DNA of 64,000 nt, taken from positions 46,494-110,493 of the forward strand of contig CAKPOA010000002.1 in NCBI GenBank assembly GCA_934169575.1. Direction: 5' to 3'. The translations under genes were made by a program, and so were the position numbers. The stretch comes from an uncultured Clostridia bacterium (lineage in GTDB: Bacteria; Bacillota; Clostridia; TANB77; CAG-508). Below, one piece after another: positions 25,840 to 47,064 of this stretch; position 1 is the stretch's first letter; each line of letters starts with the position of its first letter. Under the pieces are notes generated by a model. It made no database searches. It saw nothing but the letters and a program-made list of their open reading frames with translations, and was not told the DNA's origin.

Positions 25840-26090
25840 TACTGGATAATGGTTTATTTAAAATTAACATAAGGAAATAGTTGTAATATCAAATTTATAG
25901 TCAATTACTCTTGTTTTTCAATATAATTTTAATTTTTTTCTATTTATTCCCTAAATGCCTTACATAAAATTCATTTTTCATTTATTATATATGTCATGTT
26001 TCTGCAATCTTATGTGATTTTTATTTACATATTTGCTCCAATTATCTATTGTAGATACATACATTATTATTTTAAAGGAAGTGTTTATAA

Positions 26091-26339
26091 ATGAGTATAT
26101 CAGATGCTATTAGATTTAGAATCGATGATTTATTAGAAGATTATGACTTAACAGCATACAGATTATCTTATCTTGCTGGCATTTCACCTTCTGTTATTAG
26201 TGACTGTCAAAGAGGAAAAGTTAAAGAGCCAACAATTAGCACAATTATTCATATTTGTGAAGGGCTTGGTATCCAATTAAAGGATTTTTTTGATTCTGAA
26301 ATCTTTACTGATGTTGAGGCAATTGAAAGATTTGATTAA
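26091..26339 (+). CDS. XRE-family helix-turn-helix protein
   Basis: 82 aa with an HTH_3-like segment (YRLSYLAGISPSVISDCQRGK). A hairpin/T-run terminator follows at 26358..26399. Confidence 0.75.
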   Translation: MSISDAIRFRIDDLLEDYDLTAYRLSYLAGISPSVISDCQRGKVKEPTISTIIHICEGLGIQLKDFFDSEIFTDVEAIERFD

Positions 26340-26516
26340 AAAGAATTATCAGTATTTAAAAAGGAGATTTAAGGTATTTTAAACTTAGTTCTCCTTTTTG
26401 CAATATTTCAATATATATACCTATAAATCTTTTAAGAATTTATTTATAAATACATGGCATTTTATAAGATTTTGTGATATATTTATTGAAGAAAATAATT
26501 TTAGAAAGGTGATAAA

Positions 26517-27305
26517 ATGGAAAAAAAGCCTATGAAAATCTTAATTATTGAAGATGATGTTGAAGAATGTAAAGATTTTATTGAATGTGCAAAAACAATG
26601 GACGATATTGAAATAGTTGCTGTTACTGATTCTGATATTGTTGGATTACAATATACTAAAGCTAAACACCCAGAAGGTATAGTACTAGATTTAGAACTAA
26701 ATAATAGTCAATCTGGTAATACCGATTCTTTAGGATTTTTATCTGATTTAAAAAATTTACACATGAATTATCAACCTATTATTATTGTTACAACACATGT
26801 TAATTCTAAAAGGACTTATGAAATATTACACAGAAATGGAGTTGATTTAATTTTATATAAAGACCAGCCAAAATATTCTCATAAATATGTTTTTAACAAG
26901 TTTTTAAACTTTAGAAGCACTCTTGAAGTTTCAAATTCAAATTCCATCCAAGACAAATTAATTGACTTGGATAGTAAAATTTCAGATTGCATTAATCATG
27001 AACTTGATATAATTGGAGTTGCACGAAATTTGAAAGGTAGAAAATATTTGCATGATGGAATTTTATTTTTAATTCAAAATGAAAACTCTGACATAAATGT
27101 TATGCAATATTTATCTAAAATATATAAAAAATCTCCAAATACAATAGTTAATGGTATTCAAAACTCTATCTTTCATGCTTGGCGTGTTTCTCCTATTGAA
27201 GATTTAACTGCTTATTATACTGCAAAAATAAATTATGAAACAGGTATACCAACTCCTATGGAATTTATATATTACTATGTTGATAGAGTAAAAAAATTGA
27301 TTTAA
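26517..27305 (+). CDS. Spo0A-like response regulator (receiver + Spo0A_C-type DNA-binding domain), paralog 1
   Basis: REC motifs are present (IIEDD, VLDLEL, IIVTTH, LYKD). The C-terminus follows the Spo0A_C pattern: ELDIIGVARNLKGRKYLHDGI, IQNSIFHAWRV, PTPMEFIYYYVDRV. 262 aa. Confidence 0.75.
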   Translation: MEKKPMKILIIEDDVEECKDFIECAKTMDDIEIVAVTDSDIVGLQYTKAKHPEGIVLDLELNNSQSGNTDSLGFLSDLKNLHMNYQPIIIVTTHVNSKRTYEILHRNGVDLILYKDQPKYSHKYVFNKFLNFRSTLEVSNSNSIQDKLIDLDSKISDCINHELDIIGVARNLKGRKYLHDGILFLIQNENSDINVMQYLSKIYKKSPNTIVNGIQNSIFHAWRVSPIEDLTAYYTAKINYETGIPTPMEFIYYYVDRVKKLI

Positions 27306-27320
27306 AATAAATATAAATTT

Positions 27321-27346
27321 GAACTCTGAAAAAGAGTTCTTTTTTA
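27321..27346 (+). terminator. Rho-independent terminator
   Basis: GAACTCT-gaaaa-AGAGTTC followed by TTTTTTAT. Confidence 0.7.
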
Positions 27347-27441
27347 TTTGCAAATATTCTATGTATATATCATTGTAACAAATAATTTTTTATTACTAAT
27401 TGAAGAATTTATTTGAAAATAATTTTATAATTCTGTTGAAC

Positions 27442-28389
27442 TTAATTTTCTTTTTTTAATAAGTTTTTATAGCACATTCTACAAGATAAATATCTCATCA
27501 AATCCAATTTTCCTATTCTATATAAATATTCTCTCTTTTTTATATTTTTTTTAACGTTCCTATACTTTGCATATTTTCCTTTTTTATCTCTTCCTAAAAA
27601 AAGAAAATTATTAGTGTTTTTATATATTCTACTCTTTTTATTCAAAGTCAAATTCTCCTTTTGGAGCAATTTTTTTATTTCTTCCAAACAGTATTTTAAA
27701 TATTCTTTTGATTCATGAAATAGCAAAAAATCATCTTGATAACGCACATAATATTTTATTTTTAAATTTTCTTTAATAAAATGATCCATATCATTCAAAT
27801 AAAAAATTGCTAATACTTGACTCGTCATATTTCCAATTCCTAATCCTTCTGGCTGACTATCTATAACTTTAAATACAATATCCAATGCTTCTTTGTCCTT
27901 AATTTTTCTTAGTAATTTTTCTTTTAAGATATTTTTGTCTATACTAGCGAAAAATTTACTAATATCGCATTTTAGTACATAGTATTCTCCATATTTTATA
28001 GTACATTTGTTATGGAATTTGTTTACTAATTTTATACCATATCTTGTACCTTTATTTTCCAAACTTGCTACATTTTCATCTATCAAGCAAGGAATTAAAG
28101 ATGGATATAATATTTGCCTACTAATCAGATGATTTATTACTTTATCTTGTAAGTTTTGACTCACAATTGTTCTTTCCTTAGGTTCATATATTGTAAAAAC
28201 ATTATAACTCCCTACTTCATATTTTCTTTCTAGTAAAATTTTATATATTCTGCTAATATAAATACATCTATATTCTCTATAATTTCTTACTTTTCTTTTA
28301 TTTCTTGTATGTGAGCATACTTCGTTATATGCTTGTTCTATATTTTTCATTTTTAATAAATTATTATATAAATTATTTTTTCTTTTCAT
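27442..28389 (-). CDS. DGR reverse transcriptase
   Basis: GIGNMTSQVLAIFYLN is the DGR-specific [I/L]GxxxSQ motif 4, and VRYQDDFLLF is the YxDD box. RBS AGGAG precedes the ATG at 28389. The gene lies directly downstream of TR. Confidence 0.92.
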   Translation of the reverse strand: MKRKNNLYNNLLKMKNIEQAYNEVCSHTRNKRKVRNYREYRCIYISRIYKILLERKYEVGSYNVFTIYEPKERTIVSQNLQDKVINHLISRQILYPSLIPCLIDENVASLENKGTRYGIKLVNKFHNKCTIKYGEYYVLKCDISKFFASIDKNILKEKLLRKIKDKEALDIVFKVIDSQPEGLGIGNMTSQVLAIFYLNDMDHFIKENLKIKYYVRYQDDFLLFHESKEYLKYCLEEIKKLLQKENLTLNKKSRIYKNTNNFLFLGRDKKGKYAKYRNVKKNIKKREYLYRIGKLDLMRYLSCRMCYKNLLKKEN

Positions 28390-28581
28390 TATTACTCCTA
28401 TAAAAAAAGTAGCCAAATCGCTACTTAAAAATAGTACTAAAATATATTCCCTTTCAATTTCTTTACTAACAAATATATTTATCTACTTTTATTTTATCGC
28501 ATTACAGCGAAGGGACAATAGTTTGTTTCTATATTATCTCTTATATAGTCACAATAACTATATAACCACAGTTTATAGAAT

Positions 28582-28732
28582 CTACAGGGCGCACAGCGAA
28601 CCATTTTGCATTGGAATTGCCGTTCGAATTGAACAAGTCATTGCCGGTGCCAGCATTGCCTTCATTGACAACCCCTGGACCGAAATTGCAATAGTCAGAG
28701 CCATTCATGTTGACACCAGAAGAAGCAAGCCA
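28582..28732 (-). repeat. DGR template repeat (TR)
   Basis: 151 bp collinear with 29744..29894 (offset 1162, no indels). 19 mismatches, all T on the plus strand, which is A on the coding (minus) strand. In the target frame it encodes an Asn-rich peptide (WLASSGVNMNGSDYCNFGPGVVNEGNAGTGNDLFNSNGNSNAKWFAVRPV) with AAY codons. Confidence 0.95.
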
Positions 28733-28738
28733 CTACAA

Positions 28739-29095
28739 CTATGCCCCATTGTCTTGCTTTGAAATTGATTTTTGCCATCCTATTGAATATTTTAATATAT
28801 CATCTAATTTCTCACCAAATTTTGTGTATCTTTTCATATTTATTATTTCTTTGTCATAACATAAATTTATTAAAAAATCTAATACTTTAATTTTAGCGAT
28901 TATGTCGTTGATATATTCTATTTTATTTTCTTTGGTTATATTTGCTTTATAAGCCAATTCTAGCAAATCGTATGATAAATTTCTTATTCTATTTTTTATT
29001 TCAATATCTTTTTTGGGAAAGTTATTCAAATATTTATCTATATAAATAACTAACTCTCTAATAAAATTTATTACTTTAAATTTTTCTTCTTTCAT
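28739..29095 (-). CDS. avd: DGR accessory variability determinant (four-helix-bundle, 23S rRNA IVS-protein family)
   Basis: 118 aa, a helical pattern typical of Avd (FIRELVIYIDKYLNNFPKK...LLELAYKAN...). Lies immediately 5' of TR. Confidence 0.8.
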   Translation of the reverse strand: MKEEKFKVINFIRELVIYIDKYLNNFPKKDIEIKNRIRNLSYDLLELAYKANITKENKIEYINDIIAKIKVLDFLINLCYDKEIINMKRYTKFGEKLDDILKYSIGWQKSISKQDNGA

Positions 29096-29513
29096 TTATA
29101 ATTTTTTCAACCTCAAAAATTGTTTTCTCATCATTGCACATAAGTAAATATTTATATATTTTTTCAATTCTCATTTTTTTTGCAATTTCTTTTTTTGCTT
29201 TTTCATAAAATTCTTTATAGTTATTCAAATTTTTATTATTATCTTCTTCCTCAACATCATAGTTATTTCTTTTGTCCAATACTATATAATTTATTTTATT
29301 TTTTTCTAATATTGATAGAACTTTATTATATGCACTTTTTGGAAATGAAGAATTATATATGTTATTATCAAGAATATTTATTTTATATCCTAGCAAGTAT
29401 GAAATAATATATGAATCTCTACCATAGCAATTATAAAAATTCCCAACTCTTACTAATACAACATGTTCTTTATGTACTTCTTTAACATTTTTAACTATAT
29501 TTATAATTCCCAT
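29076..29513 (-). CDS. MutS domain I-like small protein (DGR accessory gene candidate)
   Basis: 145 aa. VVLVRVGNFYNCYGRDSYIISYLLGYKI...SFPKSAYNKVLSILEKNKINYIVLD parallels the MutS mismatch-binding domain (llfFRmGDFYElFyeDA...lLgitLT...aGvP...yl.kLv..G.kVai). No ATPase domain is present. Overlaps avd by 20 nt. Confidence 0.6.
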   Translation of the reverse strand: MGIINIVKNVKEVHKEHVVLVRVGNFYNCYGRDSYIISYLLGYKINILDNNIYNSSFPKSAYNKVLSILEKNKINYIVLDKRNNYDVEEEDNNKNLNNYKEFYEKAKKEIAKKMRIEKIYKYLLMCNDEKTIFEVEKIINERRKI

Positions 29514-29531
29514 AATCTACCCCTAATAATT

Positions 29532-29561
29532 TTCCAAGAAGTCCAAAGGACCTTCTTGGAA
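29532..29561 (-). other. Strong hairpin between the DGR target gene and the accessory genes
   Basis: TTCCAAGAAGTCC-aaa-GGAC(C)TTCTTGGAA, a 13-bp stem with one bulge. No T-run follows on the minus strand. Confidence 0.5.
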
Positions 29562-29612
29562 GTCTTCTTAATTTATTTTGTTATTATTATTTATCCCTGC
29601 AGTCTTATATTT

Positions 29613-31010
29613 TTACTCCGTGATTTGTCCGTATTCTAAACTTTTACCACTAAACGAATTCGGAATTGTCGTTGTCCACTCTTCTTCACTACCAGTTGAA
29701 GAAACGGACAAATCATCAACCGTGACTCCAGATTGTAGATAAACTACAGGGCGCACAGCGAACCAAGCCGCACTGGAATCGCCGTGCGAAATGAACAAGG
29801 CATAGCCGGTGCCAGCAAAGCCTCCAGCGACAACCCCTGGACCGAAATGGCAAAAGTCAGAGCCATACATGTAGACACCAGAAGAAGCAAGCCAGTAAGA
29901 TTTTCCATTCGATTCTCTTTCTGTTCCTCTAAACAACACTTCATATAATTTACTACTTTGTTCAACTGTATCTGCATTTGGATATTGGTACATAAATGCT
30001 GTTCCCTCTACACTATCTCCTGCTTTTTTATTAGTTAATGAAGAATAGGTACTATTTGATGAATATTTTTGTTTTAAATAATTTTCTGGTGCATAATCAT
30101 TTGTTTTATATGTATAACTTTGTCCGAAAGAACCTTGATATGCTGAAATTGGTGTTTTTGATTCATCTGCAGTTTTATATAATTTATTATTTGTTTTATC
30201 CAAAGATAATCCTAATGCTGTATTTATATCTTCGATGCGCATACTTTTTGTTGAATCTGCAAATTTCCCATCATAAATTTTGCAAATGTCATCTAAAACA
30301 TTCTCACTAGTCGCCTCGCCAGCCCAATACCAACCTTCTGCTGAATTTAAATATAGATAAGGGTCTTTTTCCCAATCTTCTCCACTTGACTTCATAACTT
30401 TTTTTATTGGGCTACCTGTTGTTATCATCAATTTTGTTCCTGTTTCATCTAGTCCCAATACTCTCCATGTTGTGTTTGTATCGACATTATATTGTTGTGT
30501 CCCTGTATATCCAGTTTTTGTACTATCCACAGAAACACTTGCAGATGAATTTTTTAAAGTAGAATTATAATTTTTTATATAATCTCCTACATTTATTTCT
30601 TTATCTCTAAATGCTTGCACTAATGTTTTTGCATTTGATATAGAACCAAGCACACTAAAATCTATAGTTATTCCTCCTATTGTTATTACATCATTTTTTT
30701 CTAATGTTGCAACTTCACTATCAGTTAAATTTCCGTCTGCGTGTAACTGAGCAATTACTTCTGCTCTTGTTTGCTTGGTTCCTTCAATATAATTTACACC
30801 AGTATTATTGGATGCAGCCAAAGTTACAGTTTCCTTTACTTTTCCTCCTCTTGTTGCATCTTTTGCTTGTACTGTTCTATTTAAAATTCCGTTATTTCCT
30901 GATAACATTGCTATTGAAATTCCTGCTAAAATTATTAATACGATTATTGTAATAATTAATGCAATTAATGTTATACCTTTTTGTCCACTTTTTTGTTTTG
31001 TTTTTTTCAT
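29613..31010 (-). CDS. DGR variable (target) protein: prepilin-type N-terminus, central domain of unknown function, C-terminal variable C-type-lectin-like region
   Basis: ATG at 31010 follows the RBS AGGGGG. N-terminus MKKTKQKSGQKGITLIALIITIIVLIILAGISIAM. The VR encodes residues WLASSGVYMYGSDFCHFGPGVVAGGFAGTGYALFISHGDSSAAWFAVRPV near the C-terminus. Confidence 0.9.
   Translation of the reverse strand: MKKTKQKSGQKGITLIALIITIIVLIILAGISIAMLSGNNGILNRTVQAKDATRGGKVKETVTLAASNNTGVNYIEGTKQTRAEVIAQLHADGNLTDSEVATLEKNDVITIGGITIDFSVLGSISNAKTLVQAFRDKEINVGDYIKNYNSTLKNSSASVSVDSTKTGYTGTQQYNVDTNTTWRVLGLDETGTKLMITTGSPIKKVMKSSGEDWEKDPYLYLNSAEGWYWAGEATSENVLDDICKIYDGKFADSTKSMRIEDINTALGLSLDKTNNKLYKTADESKTPISAYQGSFGQSYTYKTNDYAPENYLKQKYSSNSTYSSLTNKKAGDSVEGTAFMYQYPNADTVEQSSKLYEVLFRGTERESNGKSYWLASSGVYMYGSDFCHFGPGVVAGGFAGTGYALFISHGDSSAAWFAVRPVVYLQSGVTVDDLSVSSTGSEEEWTTTIPNSFSGKSLEYGQITE
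29744..29894 (-). repeat. DGR variable repeat (VR), with invariant GC-rich 3' end (IMH-like)
   Basis: Counterpart of TR. 14 codons differ from the TR-encoded peptide. The invariant 3' end on the minus strand is GGTTCGCTGTGCGCCCTGTAG. The flanks diverge beyond it (IMH versus IMH* pattern). Confidence 0.95.
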
Positions 31011-31056
31011 ACATTTTCCCCCTTTGATTTTTTGTATTAAAATATTTTTCAAAATA

Positions 31057-31085
31057 ATATTATCATTTATAATTTTATTTTGCAA
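31057..31085 (-). promoter_or_regulatory. Candidate sigma-A promoter of the DGR target gene
   Basis: Minus strand reads TTGCAA (31085..31080), a 17-nt spacer, then TAATAT (31062..31057), about 45 nt upstream of the ATG. Confidence 0.45.
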
Positions 31086-31108
31086 TATCATTTTTTCTAA
31101 AAATATCG

Positions 31109-31129
31109 ATATATATATATATATATATA
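31109..31129. repeat. (AT)10 dinucleotide microsatellite
   Basis: ATATATATATATATATATATA, 24 nt upstream of the candidate -35 of the DGR target gene. Confidence 0.95.
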
Positions 31130-31248
31130 CAGCCTCAAGGGTTTCAGCGTTTATTACGATTTCATTACATTTTTATTACTTTTTTGTTACATTTTAAATT
31201 TTGTAGCTAAACCTATTTGCAAATAAACATAAATAAGATTGATAACAG

Positions 31249-31365
31249 TTATATTTCTACATTTTGAAAACTGTTACTATCTTGTGCAGTATTAATATTA
31301 TTCTGCGCAATAAACTCCTGTAAAAATTTTCTTCTTTCTTCTGATATTTTTTGATGTTTAGCCAT
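31249..31365 (-). pseudogene. Possible N-terminal remnant of an IS256-family transposase (38 codons)
   Basis: MAKHQKISEERRKFLQEFIAQNNINTAQD resembles the N-termini of Firmicute IS256-type transposases (from memory). A good RBS (AAAGGAG) is present. The ORF stops after 38 codons and no transposase body follows. Confidence 0.3.
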
Positions 31366-31389
31366 TTTTTTACTCCTTTCCCACAATAG

Positions 31390-31433
31390 AAAAATTGACT
31401 ATGATTTCTTCTATTGTATCATAGTCAATTTTT
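31390..31433. terminator. Hairpin/terminator downstream of the leuS remnant
   Basis: 16-bp perfect inverted repeat AAAAATTGACTATGAT-N12-ATCATAGTCAATTTTT, flanked by T-runs on both strands. Confidence 0.55.
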
Positions 31434-31494
31434 ATTTTTTAGAGTTTACACAGTTATTTCGATATTCTCCTCTTTTTCATTTTCTAATCATTTA

Positions 31495-32411
31495 TTATCT
31501 AGCATCATCTCCAGGATCTGTTGAACAAGTTAGAGCTTTATTCTTTTTATTCACTACTATATTATAAATCCTGCCTGGCACATATATCTCTTTCTTTACA
31601 TCATATTGACTTAATAGTGTTGCAATTCTGGGAGCTGATTTTATTATACCCAAAATTTCTTCTGATGTAGTTTCTGAACTTACTGGAATTACTGCTCTTA
31701 GCTTTCCATTAACTTGGATTGGGATATTCTTAGTTCCTCCATTAAGCTCATTTTCATTAACTTTAGGCCACTCTTCTTTATGTACAGATTGCTCTTTTCC
31801 TAAGCTTTGCCATTGTTCTTCAGCATATTCGGTTGTCTTTAAAAACCATTGTTCCATTTTTTTCTTTCAACAGGTGTACCACATCTTTCACATTTACAGT
31901 CAATAACTTGTTCATTTGCTAAAACTGTCTTACAACTGTCGCACCAATTTACTAATGAATTCTTTTTATATGCAAGTCCTTGTTGATATAATTGAGTAAA
32001 TATCCATTGAGTCCATTTATAGTATTCTGGTTTACAAGTTTCTACGGAGTAATCCCAATCGTAGTTCACTCCCATTTCTTCAAGTTGTCTTCTCATAGTT
32101 TCAATATTTTTTTCTGTAGATACTTTAGGAGATATTCCTGTTTTTATTGCATAATTTTCAGCAGGTAATCCAAAAGCATCAAAACCCATTGGATGAAATA
32201 CATTATATCCTTGCATTGATTTATACCTTTAGAATGAATCAGCAGGTGCAAAATTGAACCAATGTCCTAAATGTAAACTTGCTCCTGATGGATATGGAAA
32301 CATCTCCATTGTGTAAAACTTTTCCTTTTTACTTTCATGATTATATTTATACAATCCCTCTTCTTTCCATTTCTCTTGCCATTTTTGATCTATTTGTTTT
32401 GAATAATTCAT
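31495..32411 (-). pseudogene. leuS: Leucyl-tRNA synthetase remnant (nonsense codon, frameshift and large internal deletion)
   Basis: Three ORF pieces. The N-terminus carries the HIGH motif (SLHLGHWFNFAPADSF), then an in-frame TAA, then [26 protein letters not shown] frameshift lies in an A-run at [19 protein letters not shown]. The sequence then joins directly to the extreme C-terminal domain (IPIQVNGKLR...), so roughly the central 500 aa of a normal LeuRS are missing. Confidence 0.88.
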
Positions 32412-32430
32412 TTTTTATTACTCCTTAAAT

Positions 32431-33486
32431 TTATAATTCATTTTTGCTAGTAAAATTTTTTAACGTTGCAATTTTAGCTTCTTGTGTAATTTCTTTCCAG
32501 CTTTCTCTTAATAAGTTAATATCTATCTTCTCTTTTGATAATTGAACATCTGTATTTTTCAAATAGTTTTTCATACTTAGTGTTCCATCTGGCAATAAAT
32601 ATATTGCTATGCCATCATCACTGCTCTCTCCCCAATACCATATCGCAACTTCTCTACTTTTGTTTTTTAATTCTTTCAATTTTTGTTTTATTGCATCTGC
32701 ATTTGAAACACTTAATTCATTATAATTTTCTGCTCCCCTACCTGATGGTAATAAACTAAACACAAACCATTGCTTTATATTATTCTGTTCCACAAATTTA
32801 TAAATTTCATCCAATTCATTTTCGTTGTATCTATTTAATACAGTAACAATTCTAACATTATCCATATATTTCTTTGCTAATTTTATATTTTCTTTTACCC
32901 TATATAAATTATCTGTTCCTCTCAAATTCGCATATATATCTTTATTCAATGTGTCTAAACTTATTTGTAGTGTTATGCATGATTGAGATATTTGATTAAT
33001 AAGCCTTTCATTTAGTAATATTCCATTAGTTGCTATTGCTGGTTTTACTTTTTCATTTTCAAATAATTTCAAAATATCTTCAATATCTTCTCTTACTAAA
33101 GGTTCTCCTCCTCCAATTATAATTCTCATACAATCCCACTTTAAAATTTCCTTAGTAATTCTTTTTATTTCTTCAAAGTTTAGTTCATTTTTTCCTATTC
33201 CTGAATCATTACAACAAAAACGACATCTCGAATTACATTTATTGGTTATTTGCCAAGATAAACTTATTGGTGCAGATAAGTCTAACTTATTTATATCTGA
33301 AAAATCTCCTAATAAAAAGGCATTTTTACTCTTGTATGGATTATTTGACAGTAATTCTTCTTTATAACGTTCTATATTTTCTTCTTTTTTGATGCTCCAC
33401 ATTCTATCATATTTTATATCTTGTAATACCATTCCCCATTGTTCTTCTCTAGCAACCAATCGATTATCTATCACCTTCATCATCAT
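32431..33486 (-). CDS. Radical SAM enzyme with ~85-aa N-terminal extension
   Basis: CNSRCRFC is a CX3CX2C cluster motif, IIGGGEPL is the SAM-binding GGE motif, and LLPSGRG is also present. There is no Cys-rich SPASM/twitch C-terminus. The start overlaps the upstream kinase gene by 23 nt. Confidence 0.85.
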   Translation of the reverse strand: MMMKVIDNRLVAREEQWGMVLQDIKYDRMWSIKKEENIERYKEELLSNNPYKSKNAFLLGDFSDINKLDLSAPISLSWQITNKCNSRCRFCCNDSGIGKNELNFEEIKRITKEILKWDCMRIIIGGGEPLVREDIEDILKLFENEKVKPAIATNGILLNERLINQISQSCITLQISLDTLNKDIYANLRGTDNLYRVKENIKLAKKYMDNVRIVTVLNRYNENELDEIYKFVEQNNIKQWFVFSLLPSGRGAENYNELSVSNADAIKQKLKELKNKSREVAIWYWGESSDDGIAIYLLPDGTLSMKNYLKNTDVQLSKEKIDINLLRESWKEITQEAKIATLKNFTSKNEL

Positions 33487-34246
33487 CTATTCCTCTTTCT
33501 TTTTTTTTATTTGCTTGCCTTTGTCTAATAGATACTAATGCCTGATACGCATTAGGATAACTTCCATCTCTATCTTGTTTTTGATTATATACTAATATAG
33601 GTAAATCCTCAGCAGTTTGACCTCTTATAAGAACTTTTATGTTTTCTATATCAGAAGAACTACTCATAATACCTACACTCCTTTTAAAACCTTCATCTGC
33701 TTCATCAATAAAGCTCTCACTTGTTTTTCTATAAAAATTCCTCATTGTCCTTCTTTGTTCTTGCTCTCTTAATAAAGCTGAAACCTTACTTTGCTCATTA
33801 GATACAGCTAATGCATATACTTCTATATCAAAACCCTGAGCCTTTGCTCTATCAATTACTACTTGTTTCAAATACTCATATATGCGCATTGTTCCTATAT
33901 GAATAAAACTTATTTTATTTTCCAAACAATATTCTAGCATTTCTTTTTCTATTCTTATTGAAAATTTATTTGTACTTTGCACAAAGTCAGCATTATCATC
34001 TTCTATTTCTTTTAATCTTGGATGATACATCCTATACTTATCCATATCTATTGATACAAATGAAACATTTGGATAATCTTTCATTATCTTCTTAGGTAGT
34101 GCCGATTTTCCTGATGCTGGTTGTCCTGCTGCAAAAATCAATCTAGGGCTTTTTTCTGATTGTGCTTGTCCAACGTAATCTCTTTTTACTTTTTCAAATG
34201 CTTCTTGATATTCATCTTCTGTATAATCATAAGATTTTGTTTCCAT
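33464..34246 (-). CDS. Zeta-toxin-family P-loop kinase
   Basis: Walker A AAGQPASGKSALPK in a context typical of zeta toxin/AAA_33 phosphotransferases. 260 aa with an acidic/basic tail. No epsilon-like antitoxin gene lies upstream. Confidence 0.65.
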   Translation of the reverse strand: METKSYDYTEDEYQEAFEKVKRDYVGQAQSEKSPRLIFAAGQPASGKSALPKKIMKDYPNVSFVSIDMDKYRMYHPRLKEIEDDNADFVQSTNKFSIRIEKEMLEYCLENKISFIHIGTMRIYEYLKQVVIDRAKAQGFDIEVYALAVSNEQSKVSALLREQEQRRTMRNFYRKTSESFIDEADEGFKRSVGIMSSSSDIENIKVLIRGQTAEDLPILVYNQKQDRDGSYPNAYQALVSIRQRQANKKKERGIDDDEGDR

Positions 34247-34321
34247 CTAAAAAACTCCTTTCTAATTTATTGACTTTTTCTCTATATTGGAGTATTATAT
34301 ACTCATATGGAGATGATATAT

Positions 34322-35059
34322 ATGAATTTACAAAATAAAACTGCAATTATTACTGGTGCAAGCCGTGGTATCGGTTTGGCTACATGTCAAAGATTTATTA
34401 ATGAGAATATTGAAAATCTTATTATGATAGGGGCTAATAGCCAAAATTTGTCGTTAGCAAAAAATCAATTAAATTATAACAATATATTTACATACCAATG
34501 TGATTTATCAGATAAAAAATCTATTGATAATACTTTTGACAGAATTTTATCTAAATTTACTCATATTGACATTCTTATAAATAATGCTGGTATAATCGAT
34601 GACTCCTCTTTTGTTGAAATGACAGACATTCAAATGAAACATGTATTAGATGTGAATTTTTATGGTTCTTTTTATTGTATTAAAAAGATATTGCCTATCA
34701 TGATTATGCAAAACTATGGTAAAATAGTTAATGTTTCTTCAACATCAAAGTTTGGTACCGTTAATAAATCTAATTATGCGGCATCTAAAGCAGCATTAGA
34801 TGCATTAACAAGAACCGTATCTAAAGAAGTAGCCGAATACAATATAACTATTAATTCTGTTGCTCCTACACTAATTGACACTGATATGTTAAAGTCTATC
34901 CCTACAGATACTTTATCTAAACTAGTTAATAATTCGCCTATAAAAAGATTAGGGAAACCAGAAGAAATTGCATCTATTATATATTTTCTTTCTTCTGATG
35001 ATTCATCTTACATTACAGGAGAAACATTAATTGCTTCTGGTGGCTTATTTACTATCTAA
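34322..35059 (+). CDS. Short-chain dehydrogenase/reductase (FabG-like)
   Basis: TGASRGIG (TGxxxGxG), NNAG and the YAASKAA catalytic YxxxK. It is the only plus-strand gene of the cluster. Its 3' end overlaps the convergent methyltransferase by 15 nt. Confidence 0.9.
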   Translation: MNLQNKTAIITGASRGIGLATCQRFINENIENLIMIGANSQNLSLAKNQLNYNNIFTYQCDLSDKKSIDNTFDRILSKFTHIDILINNAGIIDDSSFVEMTDIQMKHVLDVNFYGSFYCIKKILPIMIMQNYGKIVNVSSTSKFGTVNKSNYAASKAALDALTRTVSKEVAEYNITINSVAPTLIDTDMLKSIPTDTLSKLVNNSPIKRLGKPEEIASIIYFLSSDDSSYITGETLIASGGLFTI

Positions 35060-35797
35060 TTTTTGCAATATAAAAATTTGCTTTGGAGATTGGAGATTAA
35101 ATTCATTGTAATTATAATCGCCAATTTTTTCTTTTAATATAAATTCACTGTTATTTATTAATTCTTCTAATTGCCCAGGAAAATATTGTCTCATAAAAGT
35201 ATTACTTTCTATATATAAACTTAATTTTTCATTAACATATATATTAGTTAAATAATTAATTCTGGTTGTTTTATCATATTTTCTTATTTCATATAAATCA
35301 ATATTATCTTTATAATACTCACTATAAAAACTATATCTATACTCTTTTGTTTCTTCTATATTTAAAAATCTCATATTAGGATTAAATATATCTATAATCA
35401 ACAATCCTTTATTTCTTAACACATTATAACATGATTTTAAGAAATTGTCTACATCTTCGTCATTTTTCAAATGTTGTAGAGAGTTAAAACCACATATTAC
35501 TATATCAAACATACCTAATTTTTCTTTTTCCAGTTTTCTCATATCTCCCCAAATATATTGTATATTTTCATTCTTTGTTTTTGCAATATCTAACATATCT
35601 GTAGAATAATCTAATCCTATGTACTCTTTTACATTTTCACATATTTCTTTTGATAATCTTCCTGTACCACAAGCTACTTCTAATACTCTCATATCACTCT
35701 TTAAATATTTGTTATAAAATTTTATATCTTCGGTTTGTACAACTTTGTTCATGTCATCATAAAATATATGATCACCATAGTATGTATTACATTTCAT
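35045..35797 (-). CDS. Class I SAM-dependent methyltransferase
   Basis: Motif I VLEVACGTGRL and motif post-I GLDYS. Confidence 0.85.
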   Translation of the reverse strand: MKCNTYYGDHIFYDDMNKVVQTEDIKFYNKYLKSDMRVLEVACGTGRLSKEICENVKEYIGLDYSTDMLDIAKTKNENIQYIWGDMRKLEKEKLGMFDIVICGFNSLQHLKNDEDVDNFLKSCYNVLRNKGLLIIDIFNPNMRFLNIEETKEYRYSFYSEYYKDNIDLYEIRKYDKTTRINYLTNIYVNEKLSLYIESNTFMRQYFPGQLEELINNSEFILKEKIGDYNYNEFNLQSPKQIFILQKLDSK

Positions 35798-35815
35798 ATA
35801 AATTCTCCTTTTCTA

Positions 35816-36691
35816 TTATAAGTTTAAAAAGTTTTGTATATTTTCATATAATATTTTGTTTTTTATTTCTTTTTTAATATTTAGTGCATTTATCAAATTT
35901 ATTTCATCAATTAGATTATAGTTCCACCAGCATGAGAAAGGATAACTTGAACCAAATACTATTTTATCTGACATTCCTTTATTATTTACCAAATCTTCTA
36001 ATATTTGTGTTGCTTCCATATTTGAATATTGAAAGGCATCATAAGCTGGAAATACATTTTGATTGTTTTCAAACCATCTTAAATGTCCACTTATACCACT
36101 TGTTTCTATTACCACATTATCCATTTGTTTTGCCATTTCTAATGCCTTTACTGAAGCTCTTAATAAATGTCCCATTATGAATTTCTTGTTTGGAAATGCT
36201 CTTGCAAAATTTATTGCATCTTGTGGTCCATAATTTCCTAATTTTTGTACTCTTCCAATATCTTTTTCATTCAATGCAGCAGTGTGTATATAAATGAAAA
36301 AATCATTATTTTTTGAAAATTCTATAAACTCTTTATTTGCCTCTATTTTTCCAACATCAATATTGCATAATATAGGCCAAATTACAATCCCTGCTTTGTT
36401 ACATTTTTTTAAATATCTCTCAACATCTAAAAAGCATTCATGATAATTTATATTTAATGCAAACACTGGAATTAAATTATTATTTTTTTTATATAACTCA
36501 TATATCGTTTTGTTTTCTTCCGTATATTTTCCATCTTTTGAACTTGGAAAAGGATATATTAATGCTTTATTATCTATTCCATAATTTATTTTATTGAATT
36601 CTTCTAAATATTCTTTATGTGGTCTTTGTGGTAAATTTTCTGATAGCCAATAATCTGTTCCCACTAAATAATGAGCATCTATAAACTTCAT
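35816..36691 (-). CDS. Amidohydrolase-family (TIM-barrel metal-dependent hydrolase) protein
   Basis: MKFIDAHYLVG is the N-terminal metal-binding strand. IYIHTA, MGHLL and the overall length are typical of amidohydrolase_2. I take the start as ATG 36691. Confidence 0.65.
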   Translation of the reverse strand: MKFIDAHYLVGTDYWLSENLPQRPHKEYLEEFNKINYGIDNKALIYPFPSSKDGKYTEENKTIYELYKKNNNLIPVFALNINYHECFLDVERYLKKCNKAGIVIWPILCNIDVGKIEANKEFIEFSKNNDFFIYIHTAALNEKDIGRVQKLGNYGPQDAINFARAFPNKKFIMGHLLRASVKALEMAKQMDNVVIETSGISGHLRWFENNQNVFPAYDAFQYSNMEATQILEDLVNNKGMSDKIVFGSSYPFSCWWNYNLIDEINLINALNIKKEIKNKILYENIQNFLNL

Positions 36692-36692
36692 T

Positions 36693-37856
36693 TTACACAA
36701 CCTTTCCTTTACTATTAAATTCACTTACAGTTCCATATTTTGCTTCTCGTATATCATCTAATTTTTTATCATTTAATTTATAATAATATATATCTAAATT
36801 CTCTTTTGCATTTTTTATAATTTCTTTTATACCTGATAAATCATGTATTATTTGTTTCCCATCATTTATAGAATATACTTTGAAACTTTCTATTCCATCT
36901 TTTATATTTTGAACTATAATAATCCTTACACCTTTTCTTAAATATTGATTCTTAATTGTTTTTAATTTTTTTACTCCTAAATTAGCATCAAAATAAATTC
37001 TATTCTTTCTCTCATCTTCTTGTATTAAATTTCGGATCATAGCACTTTTAATTTGTTTATTATAAATTATCGCTATATCCTTATTTTCATATATAGAAGG
37101 TAATCTCATACCAAAATTATCCATGTTGTTATATGCTAAATATGCAAAAATCTTTTGACTATATCCTATATCAAATATATATTTATTTTTAAATTCTTTG
37201 GAAACATTAAAACTATCTAATAATTCATCATCTAATAGGCTACATTGTAAAATAGTTTGAGTTTCTCCTTTTTCATTGATAGCACTTACCATATACACTT
37301 TTTCAGAATATCCTTTTACTCCATCATATTCTAAGACAACAACTGGTAAGTTTATACTTTTACAAAATTTTTTCATTTTTTCAACAACATATTTAATAGC
37401 CTCATTTTTATTCATTTTATCTATTGCTAAATTAAATTGTAATAGAGGTGATATATAGTAGTCTCTACTCATTGGTATTTGCTTTGAATCCAAAAGCCTT
37501 ATCATATAATAATAACTCAATAATGCACATTTATTTTCTTTATCCATTTTTTCTAAATTATATGGTAATGCATCTGTAATATACATATACTCTTCATTAT
37601 CCTCATCCTTAAAAAATGCTATGGTAGAATCATATTTTTGTATTCTATCTTTATATTTGTTTGAAAATTTATTAATTTTTTGAATTTCTTTAGGATAATT
37701 TATTTCTATATTGAAATCCTTAGAAAAACACTTTAAAAATGCTTCTATAGTAATATTTTGCATTTTTAATCCGTCTTCTGTCCATAATGGAAATCCCTTT
37801 GCAATACCATCAGGATAAACTAAATTCAACATTCTTAAAGCTTCTTTATAATCCAT
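36693..37856 (-). CDS. Degenerate class IIa aminoacyl-tRNA-synthetase-like protein (ProRS/ThrRS-like core + anticodon-binding-like domain)
   Basis: GFPLWTEDGLKMQNITIEAF parallels ProRS G..iw..G..i...i. NEKGETQTILQCSLLDDELLDSFNV parallels dGkalQ.gTsH.LGqnFsk.F.i. IGYSQKIFAYLAYNNMDNFGMRLPSIYENKDIAIIY parallels wGvStRliga.i..HgDd.GLvlPp.iAP.qvviiP. Canonical catalytic residues are replaced (TSH to CSL, motif-3 Arg to Lys). Confidence 0.55.
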   Translation of the reverse strand: MDYKEALRMLNLVYPDGIAKGFPLWTEDGLKMQNITIEAFLKCFSKDFNIEINYPKEIQKINKFSNKYKDRIQKYDSTIAFFKDEDNEEYMYITDALPYNLEKMDKENKCALLSYYYMIRLLDSKQIPMSRDYYISPLLQFNLAIDKMNKNEAIKYVVEKMKKFCKSINLPVVVLEYDGVKGYSEKVYMVSAINEKGETQTILQCSLLDDELLDSFNVSKEFKNKYIFDIGYSQKIFAYLAYNNMDNFGMRLPSIYENKDIAIIYNKQIKSAMIRNLIQEDERKNRIYFDANLGVKKLKTIKNQYLRKGVRIIIVQNIKDGIESFKVYSINDGKQIIHDLSGIKEIIKNAKENLDIYYYKLNDKKLDDIREAKYGTVSEFNSKGKVV

Positions 37857-38295
37857 CTTTCATTTCCTCTATTTCTATAACTATTTTTATATATTGTTCT
37901 TCACTTTTAATTTCATATTTATGTTGTTCTATAAATTCCTTTATATTTTTTATTTTATCTTTATTATATATTTGAATAAATATTAAGTTGGTTTCTTTTT
38001 TCTTATATAAACCTTTTATACAAGTAAAATAATCTTTTTTCTTTTCCAAACACCCATTTATTAAATTAAATGTTGTATTAAATGTAGCCATACTATATAA
38101 TTTGTTTTTGAAAATCTTCTTTTCATAAAAATATATGTTGGAATTTTCAGGTACAATTGGTGGAATTTCTATATACAAAAATTCCATTTTTTGTAGCTGT
38201 TCTAATATATTAGAAACATTTTCTTTAAATTTATACTTAAACATATTTTCATATTCTTTCAAATTTCTAATCTCCCTTAAATTATTAAAATTCAA
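37846..38295 (-). CDS. Hypothetical protein (149 aa), translationally coupled on both sides
   Basis: No confident family. MEFLYIEIPPIVPE weakly recalls class II aaRS motif 1 (G..ei.tP..e). Overlaps both neighbours by 11 nt. Confidence 0.4.
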   Translation of the reverse strand: MNFNNLREIRNLKEYENMFKYKFKENVSNILEQLQKMEFLYIEIPPIVPENSNIYFYEKKIFKNKLYSMATFNTTFNLINGCLEKKKDYFTCIKGLYKKKETNLIFIQIYNKDKIKNIKEFIEQHKYEIKSEEQYIKIVIEIEEMKDGL

Positions 38296-39253
38296 CTCTA
38301 AATCTAATATTTTCGCTACATTCTATTTCAGCAGTAGCACCTATTGGTATTGTTATTTTTGGATTAGTATGTCCTAAGTCCACATTATACATAATAGGAA
38401 ATTCGTCTTCTTTAAAAAATTCATTTAAAAAATCATTAATAACTATATTATTATCATCTTCGACAAACTTTCCTATAATTAGTCCCTTAATATTTTTGAA
38501 AATTCCTCTCAGTCTTAGAGCTTGCATAAACGAATCAAATTCTCCCATTGAAATATTTACATCCTCTAAAAACAAAATTTTATTATCAAATACTTCTATT
38601 GGTAAATATTCCGTTCCTAATATAGTTAGTATGCTAGATAAATTTCCTCCTATTATTTTTGCTTTTGCTTTTCCTTTTTTATTTACTTTCCAAACACAAT
38701 TGCTATAATCTTTCTGTTTTACTACTGGATTTATTTCTTCTTGCTTCCAATCTATGAATTCTTTAATTTCATAATTGGGTACTTTATAATCAATACATCG
38801 ATTATTTAACAATTCATTCAAACAGTTCCAAGTATATTCATAAGGTTGTGGGTACTCGCATATTTCTGGTAAAAATGTTGGTCCATGAAAAACGATTTTT
38901 TTAGTTTTTACATATATAGCTAAAAGCAAACATGTTATATCGCTATATCCACAAAATATTTTATTGCTTTTGGAGATTTTTTCATAATCCAGCTTATCAA
39001 TTAATTGATTTGAATTATACCCACCTATACTAGCCATAATAACATCAATATTTTCATTATCTAATGCCATATATATATCTTCAATTCGTTCAACAACTGT
39101 TCCTGAATAATATGATATTTTTTTTGAGGCGTTTTTTTCAAAATTCACATTATATCCACATTTATTAAGAAACTTACATCCTCTTTTAGCTCTATTTGGA
39201 TAGTCTATTAAATAACTACTTGCAGGCGAAATTATTGAAAATCCTTTTATCAT
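38285..39253 (-). CDS. S66 LD-carboxypeptidase / MccF-like serine peptidase
   Basis: Nucleophile motif FCGYSDITCLL, C-terminal DLGHTNP (catalytic His) and N-terminal IISPAS. Confidence 0.85.
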   Translation of the reverse strand: MIKGFSIISPASSYLIDYPNRAKRGCKFLNKCGYNVNFEKNASKKISYYSGTVVERIEDIYMALDNENIDVIMASIGGYNSNQLIDKLDYEKISKSNKIFCGYSDITCLLLAIYVKTKKIVFHGPTFLPEICEYPQPYEYTWNCLNELLNNRCIDYKVPNYEIKEFIDWKQEEINPVVKQKDYSNCVWKVNKKGKAKAKIIGGNLSSILTILGTEYLPIEVFDNKILFLEDVNISMGEFDSFMQALRLRGIFKNIKGLIIGKFVEDDNNIVINDFLNEFFKEDEFPIMYNVDLGHTNPKITIPIGATAEIECSENIRFRVEF

Positions 39254-39265
39254 TTAATCACCCCA

Positions 39266-40117
39266 TTACTTTCCTATTAATGAACTATGGTATAATTCAG
39301 GATCATTAAATATATCTGCTTCTTTTTTCCTTAATATAAATATAGTAAATCCCATATGGCTATTATTCTCATTAAATAAATGCATATAATCATAATAGAC
39401 TTTCTCTAAAACATTTAAGCTTTCTTTTGACAAACTTTTTAAATGTTCCCTTGACAATATATTCTTACAAAATTCATTTATTTCACTATCAGTACACTTA
39501 TTGAACTTAAAATCAATTTCATCAAAAATTTCATCTTCATCTCTAACAAAGAATTTTTTCCAGTCATTTTTATATAATACAGATATATTTACTTGTATAG
39601 CTTTTCTTACATCGTTTACTAATTTTTCACTTGGTGTCTCTAAATAATACATTGGTACAGCTACCAAATATCCATTTGGTTTTAATACTCTCCAATATTC
39701 TTTCAATGCATTTTCCCTATCGCTAACTAAAGAGGTAACATTTCCTGCAAATACTACATCAAAAGTTTTGTCAGGAAATTTCATATTTGTTGCATCATCT
39801 AACATAAATTTTGCTTTATTTAATTCAAATCTGTTTATTCTCTCTTGAGCCGTTTTTAGGCTCATTTCATTTATGTCAATTCCTACCACTTCGCAATTTA
39901 ATAGTCTACTAAATTCTAGTGCTGAATGTCCTGTACTTGTACCTATATCAAGTATTTTACTATTATTATTTAACATTAATTTTTCTGCTACAGTTCTTAT
40001 TGTATTTAATCCTCCTGGTGTTCTATTCGTTTCCCTCACTAATCCAATAATTTCATTATAACTCATTTCTTGTATATCTTTAGGTGTTATATTTTCTATT
40101 TTTTTCATTTCAATCAT
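39266..40117 (-). CDS. Class I SAM-dependent methyltransferase
   Basis: Motif I ILDIGTSTGHSALEF, then GIDINE and FDVVFAGNV. Confidence 0.85.
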   Translation of the reverse strand: MIEMKKIENITPKDIQEMSYNEIIGLVRETNRTPGGLNTIRTVAEKLMLNNNSKILDIGTSTGHSALEFSRLLNCEVVGIDINEMSLKTAQERINRFELNKAKFMLDDATNMKFPDKTFDVVFAGNVTSLVSDRENALKEYWRVLKPNGYLVAVPMYYLETPSEKLVNDVRKAIQVNISVLYKNDWKKFFVRDEDEIFDEIDFKFNKCTDSEINEFCKNILSREHLKSLSKESLNVLEKVYYDYMHLFNENNSHMGFTIFILRKKEADIFNDPELYHSSLIGK

Positions 40118-40126
40118 TCCTTTCTT

Positions 40127-41143
40127 TTATGGTATTATGTCTTGTCCCAAAAATCTTGGCAAAATTTGGCAATCTCTTATATCATCTTTCTTAGTTAACC
40201 ACAGTATGAATCTTTCTACTCCCATTCCAAAGCCTGACGTTTGCATTGGATACTCATCCTTCATTTCTATATACCATTTATACTCATTTTCTGATACTTG
40301 ATGTAATTTAAGAGCTTCTCTCACTTCATCACCAGTACTATGTCTTTCTCCAGCTCCTACCGTTTCTCCAATTCCTATTAATAAATCTGCATTATTAGCA
40401 TATCTTTTATCAATATTTGTACTTTGATAGAACGGAACTGCTTTTATATCAAAATGTGTTATCCATACACATCCATTAAAATAATTTATTAATGCTCTTT
40501 CTCCTTCTTTAGTAATATTTCTAAATCCTAACTTATTATATTCAAAATATTTTTCATCATTTTTCAAAATATTAATTGCTTCTTCAAATGTAACCTTTGG
40601 GATTTCCTCAAGATTTATAAATTTATGTATGTGTTCACTTGTTCCTGCTATATCTATTATTTCCTTTTCATATTCCTTTAAGATATTTTTAGACAAATAT
40701 TTTAAATATTCTTCTACTAACTGCATAATATCTTCTAATTTTCCACATATCTCTGCTTCACTATGATAAAATTGACTTAAATGTCTTTTATCTTCGCTTT
40801 CTCCACGGAATGATGGCATAATATACCATACACCATTTTCAAAAAATCTGCATCCATATTCCAATGCAAATTGCATAGAATCCGCTAAATAAGTATCACG
40901 TCCACCTAATTTAATTTTTACAGGTATTGAATCACTCCCTAATCCCATTGGACTAGATATCGAACCTGTTGTAACAGGTAAGTGCATTGTTTTTATATTT
41001 TTTTCAATATAAAATAAATTTGTGTACTTAGATATTAGATTATCAATTTCTACTAATCTCTTATACCACTCGTCATTAATTGCATTTATAAAATGTCTTT
41101 GTGGAACTTTCCATAATTTTTTTGGTTCAATTAGTTCTTTCAT
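40127..41143 (-). CDS. Stand-alone class II aaRS catalytic core (AsnRS/AspRS/AsnA-like), no anticodon-binding domain
   Basis: Motif 2 IMPSFRGESEDKRHLSQFYHSEAEI and motif 3 SGFGMGVERFILWL. Only 338 aa and begins directly with the catalytic domain. RBS AAGGAG. Confidence 0.8.
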   Translation of the reverse strand: MKELIEPKKLWKVPQRHFINAINDEWYKRLVEIDNLISKYTNLFYIEKNIKTMHLPVTTGSISSPMGLGSDSIPVKIKLGGRDTYLADSMQFALEYGCRFFENGVWYIMPSFRGESEDKRHLSQFYHSEAEICGKLEDIMQLVEEYLKYLSKNILKEYEKEIIDIAGTSEHIHKFINLEEIPKVTFEEAINILKNDEKYFEYNKLGFRNITKEGERALINYFNGCVWITHFDIKAVPFYQSTNIDKRYANNADLLIGIGETVGAGERHSTGDEVREALKLHQVSENEYKWYIEMKDEYPMQTSGFGMGVERFILWLTKKDDIRDCQILPRFLGQDIIP

Positions 41144-44970: not shown

Positions 44971-44986
44971 AATATATTTAAATTAA
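44208..44986 (+). pseudogene. istB: IS21-family helper ATPase IstB, frameshifted in a poly-A run near 44580
   Basis: Walker A VGSSGVGKTHIA, Walker B LLIIDEIGY and the C-terminus LLHHSYVFNITGESYR. The break occurs at GCAAAAAAAAGAATAAG. Confidence 0.8.
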
Positions 44987-46045: not shown

Positions 46046-46046
46046 A

Positions 46047-47039: not shown

Positions 47040-47064
47040 TTCTACAATTCCCTTCTACATAATT

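Follow-up and report, generated by a model that had tools for sequence, protein, structure and literature searches.

A minus-strand cassette with the layout of a diversity-generating retroelement

We analyzed a 64,000-nucleotide (nt) stretch of contig CAKPOA010000002.1 (assembly GCA_934169575.1), from an uncultured Clostridia bacterium, that carries a set of genes and repeats with the layout of a diversity-generating retroelement (DGR). We refer to the whole stretch as the window. The parts of the cassette, a target gene, a MutS-like gene (MSL), avd (accessory variability determinant), a template repeat (TR) and a reverse transcriptase (RT) gene, follow one another in that order on the minus strand, and the view of the initial annotation that this order fits DGR biology held up. 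The target, or variable protein, gene (29613..31010) encodes 465 amino acids (aa) from an ATG at 31010. The mechanical open reading frame (ORF) extends to an ATG at 31091, and we moved the probable start from the earlier boundary to 31010. The exact 465-aa protein is present in a public protein collection, and nearly all full-length homologues among the matches listed are 430-480 aa long.

MSL (29076..29513) encodes a protein of 145 aa with an isoelectric point (pI) of 9.2 that matches Pfam MutS_I at 35.4 bits (cut-off 20.6). The gene overlaps the start of avd (28739..29095) by 20 nt. Avd (118 aa, pI 9.2) matches Pfam bAvd at 46.6 bits (cut-off 40) and scores 51 bits with the NCBIfam model DivGenRetAVD, under the equivalog cut-off of 80. 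The TR (28582..28732) is intergenic, lying in the interval between avd and the RT gene, and is followed by a structured "spacer" (Sp) RNA of 183 nt (28399..28581) that spans the distance from the TR end to the RT ribosome-binding site. The RT gene (27442..28389; 315 aa; Pfam RVT_1) has an AGGAG ribosome-binding site 8 nt upstream. A TTG at 28416 falls within the terminator hairpin of the Sp RNA; the probable start, which corrects the earlier boundary, is the ATG at 28389 behind AGGAG. All ORFs of the cassette are intact. At its end, between the 3' ends of the RT gene and a convergent Spo0A-like gene, is a hairpin (27321..27339) that resembles a bidirectional terminator.

TR and VR differ at template adenines

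The TR is 151 nt long and contains 33 adenines and 10 AAY codons. Its counterpart in the target gene, the variable repeat (VR; 29744..29894, minus strand), is also 151 nt long, covers codons 373-422 of the 465-aa protein and ends 43 codons before the stop; the VR start coincides with a codon boundary of ORF 29613-31091. Compared base by base, the two repeats align at a constant offset of 1162 with exactly 19 mismatches, as had been annotated, and all 19 are T on the plus strand of the TR, which is A on the coding minus strand. The computed alignment contained neither a substitution at a non-adenine template position nor an indel. Read on the minus strand from TR to VR, A became T at 8 positions, G at 6 and C at 5. 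With 33 adenines in 151 nt, chance would place all 19 differences on A with a probability of about 1e-15 (hypergeometric) or 3e-13 (binomial). Identity drops at once beyond both repeat ends, and a repeat finder independently returned the same pair. The codon counts given earlier needed revision: in the ORF frame there are 10 rather than 11 AAY codons, and 15 rather than 14 codons differ. Nor is the terminal CTGTAG (...CCCTGTAG) the stop codon, because the ORF runs those 43 codons beyond the VR and the TAG is out of frame as a stop. The 20 adenine-containing codons of the TR could yield ~4e16 possible peptides, and only one of them (AAA) is able to mutate to a stop.

The minus-strand 3' ends of the repeats have the arrangement expected of an initiation of mutagenic homology (IMH) site and its template counterpart (IMH*). 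The candidate IMH (29724..29765, minus strand) consists of 22 nt identical to the TR (TGGTTCGCTGTGCGCCCTGTAG, 29744-29765) and ~20 nt of partly similar sequence (29724-29743). The flank after the VR and the flank after the TR are about 60% similar, with 10 of the first 16 nt matching. Related loci have the same layout, a GC-rich ...CGYCCYGTAG followed by TTTATCTA... after the VR or by MTTCTATAAA... after the TR. An IMH/IMH* reading of the repeat ends is consistent with these sequences, and the function would be that of the IMH in Bordetella, by analogy. The whole DGR lineage conserves the G+C-rich 3' end of TR and VR (...GTGCGCCCYGTAG), which in the target specifies the invariant ...AVRPV. Both repeats are 49% G+C, compared to ~25% for the genome.

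An adenine-masked scan of both strands of the 64 kb found no further VR, and adenine-masked exact-pattern scans of genome and metagenome contig collections found no match to the TR or VR of the window. The close relatives described below were reached via protein look-ups, not via these pattern scans.

A separate feature lies beyond the VR. A perfect 12-bp inverted repeat (TGATTTGTCCGT / ACGGACAAATCA; 29621-29632 and 29704-29715, minus strand) begins 29 nt downstream of the VR and encloses ~71 nt. It is kept in close relatives, with one compensatory double change in locus L061 (GTCCAT / ATGGAC), and has no counterpart in more distant loci. Such a repeat may form a structure, in DNA or RNA, that helps target recognition, or may be due to chance.

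The VR has been rewritten recently while the TR stayed constant

We compared the window with four assemblies of the same species (L001, L092, L093 and L094) that are 98.6-99.3% identical to it over about 5 kb. The TR was identical in all four (151/151). By contrast, their VRs each differed from the window VR at 12-25 positions, for a total of 69 differences, and 68 of these fell at TR adenines. VR divergence was 8-17% vs 0.4-0.9% in the rest of the region. Measured against the TR, each sister VR had 17-19 mismatches. The window and L001 had zero substitutions in RT, MSL, TR and Sp RNA. Similarly, a cluster of 10 target proteins at 90% identity contained nine different VRs in a near-constant backbone, two members being identical over the compared region, and the hypervariable columns were the AAY-templated codons, with up to 8 states each. 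Since 68 of the 69 differences lie at the adenines of an identical TR, these data argue that the element has been active recently and back the earlier remark that it "looks active". The window and L092 have the 5' part of the VR pattern in common, and their differences are confined towards the 3' part. We infer that this pattern may reflect retrohoming tracts anchored at the 3' (IMH) end.

The strain comparison bears on the possibility that the locus is a fossil, an element that once diversified its VR and is now inactive, so that the adenine-specific differences are historical. Activity here is deduced from sequence comparison, and some adenine-site states are common to several strains, which indicates that not every site has turned over since the strains diverged. 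Against a fossil stand the divergence of the VR, confined to adenine sites, between strains with nearly identical flanks, the absence of any substitution in RT, MSL, TR and Sp RNA between the window and L001, the intact ORFs with preserved catalytic and fidelity motifs, and the nine VRs among ten cluster members. We consider inactivity very unlikely.

A second variable patch is present in the target gene, at aa 449-457 (29643-29671, minus strand), 90 nt downstream of the VR, with sequences such as IPNSFSGKS, LPNSYDSVR and IPNSFNGEK. Of the 50 non-VR differences from L001, 10 lie in this patch. Because only 3-4 haplotypes occur and the window contains no template for it, we rejected it as a second VR; it looks like ordinary allelic variation or recombination. 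The resemblance of this patch to allelic exchange is what lends some credit to another explanation, namely that the inter-strain VR differences arose by recombination among pre-existing alleles and not by retrohoming. Recombination does not predict a restriction to one template base, however, and all but one of the inter-strain VR differences are so restricted; in addition, the most variable of the adenine-templated codons show 4-8 states among the 10 sequences. We judge this explanation very improbable for the VR, and retain recent retrohoming as the source of its variation.

The reverse transcriptase and accessory proteins resemble those of DGRs

The closest relative of the RT in the PDB is the Bordetella phage DGR RT (bRT; 8ub7; E 1e-22, 84 bits), and the next best is a group II intron RT (E 2e-7, 34 bits). 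In the alignment with bRT, the sequence IGNMTSQ falls opposite IGSLTSQ and YQDD opposite YMDD. The initial annotation had singled out IGNMTSQ as a DGR-type motif, and it indeed fits IGxxxSQ rather than QGxxxSP; [I/V/L]GxxxSQ in place of QGxxxSP is a DGR signature (PMC7826257). The alignment also places an Arg opposite Arg74 and an Ile opposite Ile181, two residues that promote adenine mutagenesis in bRT (PMC7826257). Relatives of the RT were found in 80 loci from metagenome-assembled genomes of uncultured gut Clostridia (human, rabbit, chicken, goat and zoo animals). Relatives in phage collections were at most 41% identical, and the records include the DGR-carrying ANMV-1, Bordetella and Bacteroides phages.

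We considered whether the RT might instead derive from a group II intron, a retron or a defence system (DRT/Abi), with the repeat being unrelated to it. NCBIfam models for group II RTs (71 bits, cut-off 300), Drt3a (67 bits, cut-off 200) and retron St85 do give weak matches, but all are far below their cut-offs. The score of the bRT match, more than twice that of the group II RT, and the motif IGxxxSQ point away from such an origin, as do the adjacent Avd and the lack of a maturase/X domain, an endonuclease domain, intron RNA domains and an Rfam match. Judged by PDB match scores and motif, the RT would not group with group II or retron enzymes, and we regard a non-DGR origin as highly improbable.

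The MSL protein is a small, stand-alone version of MutS domain I. In an alignment, its VGNFYNCYGRD matches VGDFYECFGED, the mismatch-binding motif of Taq MutS, with the Phe retained and the Glu replaced by Asn. Among 110 relatives, G24, F26, C29, Y30, G31 and D33 are at least 95% conserved. PF01624 was found in all but one of 120 MSL relatives among the matches listed, and in those that we inspected the gene is positioned between a target-like gene and avd.

A conserved structured RNA follows the TR

The interval between TR and RT gene folds into a series of helices on the minus strand. Directly after the TR, an outer helix (28574-28580 with 28527-28533) encloses a 10-bp hairpin (28541-28565) that begins 16 nt after the TR and is a candidate Avd-binding stem-loop, by analogy with the Bordetella RNA. 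Next comes the segment ACAAACUAUUGUCCC (28512-28526), which forms the 3' strand of a duplex that brackets the TR. After it come a small hairpin (28497-28511) and a long helix whose strands, 28483-28490 and 28427-28434, enclose 28440-28480. The last element is a terminator hairpin with a U-run (28402-28426), which an independent scan also called as an intrinsic terminator. The 5' strand of the long-range duplex (GGGGCAUAGUUGU; 28735..28747) is 13 nt long, includes the stop codon of avd and stops two bases short of the TR. TR/VR homology reaches its 5' limit (28732) two bases from the edge of the bracketing duplex.

The Sp RNA is conserved in loci whose RTs are 56-93% identical to that of the window, and compensatory changes are visible by eye. 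In an alignment of 14 loci, RNAalifold predicted 49 pairs, 24 of them with compensatory changes. A covariance model (R1) built from these 14 loci gave 81 matches in 90 sources with E from 1e-34 to 1e-3. Among 76 distinct Sp sequences, in an alignment that was itself fitted to the model, 98.1% of cells held standard pairs and 42 of the 49 pairs had changed on both sides (594 cells). The covariation score was 0.535. In comparison, slid controls reached at most 24 pairs, 78 cells and a score of 0.087, and none of 500 shuffles attained the observed value. Covariation extends over eight helices and includes all 10 pairs of the hairpin that follows the TR.

The same analysis ties this RNA to the TR. 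An AAY-rich sequence ending in ...CGYCCYGTAG, the TR, directly precedes the Sp RNA in 73 of 78 distinct matches. Similarly, an element complementary to the Sp segment was present at the distance expected for the TR 5' flank in all 69 loci with enough upstream sequence. Aligning the joined duplex strands with MAFFT misplaced a bulge, so pairs were counted by anchored indexing. In these anchored counts, from 63 distinct sequences, 93.7% of positions were paired vs a shuffle maximum of 90.1%, with none of 1000 shuffles reaching the observed value. Four pairs clearly covary; for example, one is C-G in 48 sequences and U-A in 13, and another is A-U in 38 and G-C in 17. An unanchored duplexfold run of the whole upstream region against the whole Sp RNA was uninformative. 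An Rfam search of 26000-32500 returned no family at E<=1.

Two further pairings were considered. A pseudoknot within the Sp RNA between GUCC(Y)UU and GAAAGGGA was rejected, as it involves two near-invariant strands with no compensatory changes; the conservation of GUCC is explained by its pairing with the element upstream of the TR in the long-range duplex. For a primer duplex between the TR 3' end and the Sp RNA, including CUGUGG with CCYGUAG, covariation gave no support. When the last 40 nt of the TR were compared with the Sp RNA, no stack of at least 4 pairs at 90% pairing or more was found, the TR 3' end being too conserved for informative covariation. Promoter-like matches were no commoner than in shuffles, and we claim no promoter.

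In most related loci the TR-Sp unit is on the strand opposite the RT gene, immediately downstream and convergent with it (for example L018:5972-6155(-)). Some loci carry several copies of the Sp RNA, with four in L033 (8240-10913) and three in L131 (378-3517), which suggests that one RT may have several template RNAs. When candidates picked up with a loose sequence pattern were passed through the model, it confirmed 75 further Sp matches in 100 genome loci, nearly all of them of gut Clostridia. Nine IMG/VR viral contigs (L207-L215) also match the loose Sp sequence pattern, as pattern matches only.

An ordinary duplication or gene conversion between paralogues, with differences limited to one base by chance or mutation bias, has nothing in its favor beyond the existence of a 151-nt repeat. 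It can be dismissed as next to impossible given the probability of about 1e-15, the invariance of the extragenic copy, which precedes a conserved structured RNA and a DGR-type RT, and the recurrence of the pattern in some 20 related loci in which a TR/VR pair was found.

A prepilin-like target protein

The target begins with a prepilin-like leader and a hydrophobic helix (MKKTKQKSGQKG|ITLIALIITIIVLIILAGISIAML; about 30906-31010). The N-terminal sequence MKKTKQKSGQKG|ITLIALIITIIVLIILAGISI resembles a class III (prepilin) signal; the sequence there reads KG|ITLIALIITIIVL. Pfam N_methyl matches 23 of 27 members of the target family (best E 5.7e-5), and NCBI names one relative a "type II secretion system protein". 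An AlphaFold model built with 121 homologues has a mean predicted local distance difference test (pLDDT) score of 55 and features a long N-terminal helix; it is confident only at residues 41-70 and 81-120, where the means of 10-residue blocks are 72-92. We conjecture that the target probably works as an adhesin, or as the tip subunit of a fibre resembling a type IV pilus, the pilin assignment being that of a prepilin-like protein as defined by the N-terminal motif only. Pilin domains, of G type, have been noted as rare DGR targets (PMC11661182).

The target has more than 1900 homologues (E<=1e-3), in which the AAY-templated columns are the variable ones. In other genomes, homologous targets are often found without a cassette beside them: four loci (L002 and L003-L005) encode homologues 72-86% identical to the target, with hypervariable VR columns, and have no adjacent RT, avd or TR. 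These homologues are probably remote targets that are diversified in trans. They adjoin sporulation and cell-wall genes (SpoIID, Peptidase_M23, SpoVG and MurC), and no pilus assembly genes adjoin them in L002-L005.

A complete chromosomal DGR and its putative mechanism

The initial annotation had interpreted the locus as a complete DGR, and every defining feature that could be tested was found. We consider it highly probable that the locus is a complete chromosomal DGR of the Avd and MSL type, in an uncultured, low-G+C member of the human-gut Clostridia, and that it diversifies a prepilin-like surface protein.

If the element works as its homologue in the Bordetella phage does, the operon transcript (target-MSL-avd-TR-Sp) would fold into a scaffold that brackets the TR, and RT and Avd would bind this scaffold to form a ribonucleoprotein. 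Synthesis of cDNA would then be primed in cis from within the Sp RNA, would proceed along the TR from its 3' to its 5' end, with nucleotides incorporated at random opposite A, and would stop at the bracketing duplex; each of these steps is modeled on the phage system. Also by homology, the cDNA would replace the VR, directed by the GC-rich 3' end (IMH). The Sp terminator, directly before the RT ribosome-binding site, probably keeps RT expression low relative to the RNA, which is our conjecture. Such a system would yield a surface protein of prepilin-like type, for which about 4e16 ligand-binding variants are possible.

Several observations weigh against this interpretation or parts of it. First, the sister VRs include a single non-adenine change, a C>G in L001, and recent activity is deduced indirectly, from the comparison of strains. 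Second, neither a TR:Sp primer duplex nor a priming nucleotide was identified, and no such pairing had covariation support. Third, the role of MSL is a conjecture: the protein may shield the mismatch-dense cDNA:VR heteroduplex from host mismatch repair or handle it in some other way. Host MutS lowers DGR output 5-10 fold in Bacteroides (bioRxiv 10.1101/2024.11.15.621889).

The remaining points concern the pilin assignment. The window target scores 14 bits with Pfam N_methyl, under the cut-off of 21.2, and it lacks Glu5, with Ala at position +5 in the window target and in every homologue that has an N-terminus (alignment A1). Some tip or minor pseudopilins, GspK among them, can do without Glu5. 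With respect to the C-type-lectin (or Ig) fold that displays the VR in DGRs and tolerates variation, the VR domain was modeled with pLDDT below 50 and had no match at E<1 in a Foldseek search against the PDB, and a PDB profile search together with Pfam scans of the 27 members assigned the C-terminal domain to no family. Finally, none of the 35 window ORFs scanned, which include the flanks of the cassette, encodes a pilus assembly ATPase, platform protein or prepilin peptidase.

We also put forward, tentatively and with distinctly less confidence than the DGR assignment, a broader proposal. The 5' bracketing strand, the TR and the 183-nt Sp RNA with its eight covarying helices and its own terminator may together constitute an RNA family that is outside Rfam and of which we found no description. 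This family may be common to DGRs in well over 100 gut Clostridia genomes, mostly convergent to the RT gene and sometimes present in three or four copies. The template RNA might then be an autonomous, terminated transcription unit that acts in trans with RT, Avd and MSL, one RT serving several template RNAs, and the element would vary a Glu5-less, prepilin-like tip adhesin of a type IV pilus-like fibre.

Comparison with known systems

The mechanistic prototype of these elements is the BPP-1 DGR (mtd - avd - TR - brt). The window element resembles it in the adenine-specific transfer from TR to VR, in its homologous RT and Avd, and in the GC-rich, identical 3' end of TR and VR followed by diverging sequence (the IMH/IMH* layout). 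It differs in being chromosomal in a Gram-positive anaerobe and not phage-borne, in its extra MSL gene, in a target that is prepilin-like and not a tail fibre, and in a VR that is not at the extreme C-terminus. Moreover, its Sp RNA has no detectable sequence or Rfam relationship to that of BPP-1 and has an intrinsic terminator at its end, ahead of the RT gene.

At the level of RNA, the Bordetella DGR has a stop duplex, an Avd-binding stem-loop just after the TR, and cis-priming from the Sp RNA (bioRxiv 10.1101/2023.10.23.563531). The window duplex 28735-28747/28512-28526 resembles the "stop duplex" that flanks the TR, and the window RNA likewise has a stem-loop just downstream of the TR. In BPP-1, an RNA motif named RT-10 has been described in the interval from TR to brt (Weinberg et al. 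2017, PMC5737381). The window shares with this and other RT-associated motifs a conserved structured RNA between TR and RT gene. Unlike the RT-10 and Bordetella RNAs, that of the window belongs to a different sequence family, with about 183 nt, eight helices and a built-in terminator, and in most loci related to the window the TR-Sp unit is encoded on the other strand and converges with the RT gene.

DGRs with both MSL and avd have been termed "Architecture D" and make up 16 of 372 DGRs (Wu et al. 2018, PMC5758913); the Bacteroides Bfr, Bth and Bun DGRs and the Legionella DGR carry MSL (PMC5758913). By gene content, the window cassette has the Avd and MSL pair of Architecture D. Its small MutS-domain-I protein is encoded with avd, and the length of 145 aa is within the published 112-283 aa. 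It departs from the published set in the basic pI of its MSL (9.2, against a mean of 7.2 +/- 1.7), in its host lineage (uncultured gut Clostridia) and in its target type. Some Bacteroides DGRs have tip adhesins of type V pili as their targets (bioRxiv 10.1101/2024.11.15.621889). These are similar to the window element in being chromosomal in a gut commensal, in having Avd with or without MSL, and in an apparently pilus-associated adhesive target. The window target differs from theirs in its signal, which resembles the class III type of type IV pili and type II secretion systems, not that of a type V pilin.

A DGR at this locus is in itself unsurprising to a specialist, and nothing here overturns current understanding; the additional value is in the RNA scaffold family and the prepilin-like target family. 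The RNA model gives a secondary structure, backed by covariation, of a DGR RNA from a source other than Bordetella. It shows that an unrelated sequence family has kept the TR-bracketing duplex and the hairpin after the TR, it adds a built-in terminator, and it can be used to find TRs, including those far from any RT. The MSL of the window is a compact example that keeps the mismatch-stacking Phe without the Glu, and is a candidate for studying how DGRs escape mismatch repair. With its more than 1900 homologues, the prepilin-like target family suggests that pilus-type adhesins are a major substrate when gut Firmicutes use targeted hypermutation. If the pilin assignment is correct, gut Clostridia would vary a type IV pilus-like tip adhesin by means of a DGR, as Bacteroides does for type V pili.

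Genomic context and additional observations

The window is ~25% G+C and contains the housekeeping genes dnaG, rpoD, aspS, dus, rodA/ftsW, minDE and thyA. Among species representatives, "uncultured Clostridiales bacterium ERR260175-bin.10" is the closest, with 93% identity over the portion present, and a syntenic contig comes from a Hadza human gut metagenome. We rejected a phage or prophage origin of the cassette: the 35 larger window ORFs are mostly chromosomal housekeeping genes and include no phage structural genes, and phage relatives of the RT do not exceed the 41% identity given above.

The Spo0A-like gene that converges with the RT gene (26517-27305, plus strand) encodes a degenerate receiver domain and a Spo0A_C domain, and scores well below the equivalog cut-off. 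This gene and an 82-aa HTH gene (26091-26339) are syntenic with the DGR in L001, L092, L093 and L094. A different arrangement was found in L006 and L008 (ERZ27263529 and ERZ28761995), in which target-MSL-avd-TR-Sp is followed by an inserted AbiEii gene and toxin-antitoxin module, and the RT gene is on the opposite strand with its own second MutS_I gene.

On the other side of the cassette, three short minus-strand ORFs of 120, 125 and 60 aa (31495-32411) encode fragments of a class I tRNA synthetase (tRNA-synt_1g and Anticodon_1). Together they look like a degraded or split MetRS-like gene. The fragmentation is not an assembly error, because the Hadza contig L093 has the same fragmentation. Beyond them is an island (32431-41143) with methyltransferases, a radical SAM enzyme and a zeta toxin, in which we also place a 338-aa class II tRNA-synthetase catalytic core without an anticodon-binding domain (40127-41143, minus strand) and a truncated, 195-aa SAM synthetase without its N-terminal domain (41369-41956, minus strand). 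Further along the window are an rve-family transposase (42930-44018) and a CRISPR array of 10 repeats (ATTTACATTCTAATATATTTAAATTAATAC) with a period of about 66 (44958-45592), which adjoins a type I-B-like cas operon (45761-53926) encoding Cas1, Cas3 and a Cas8b-type CXXC_CXXC protein.

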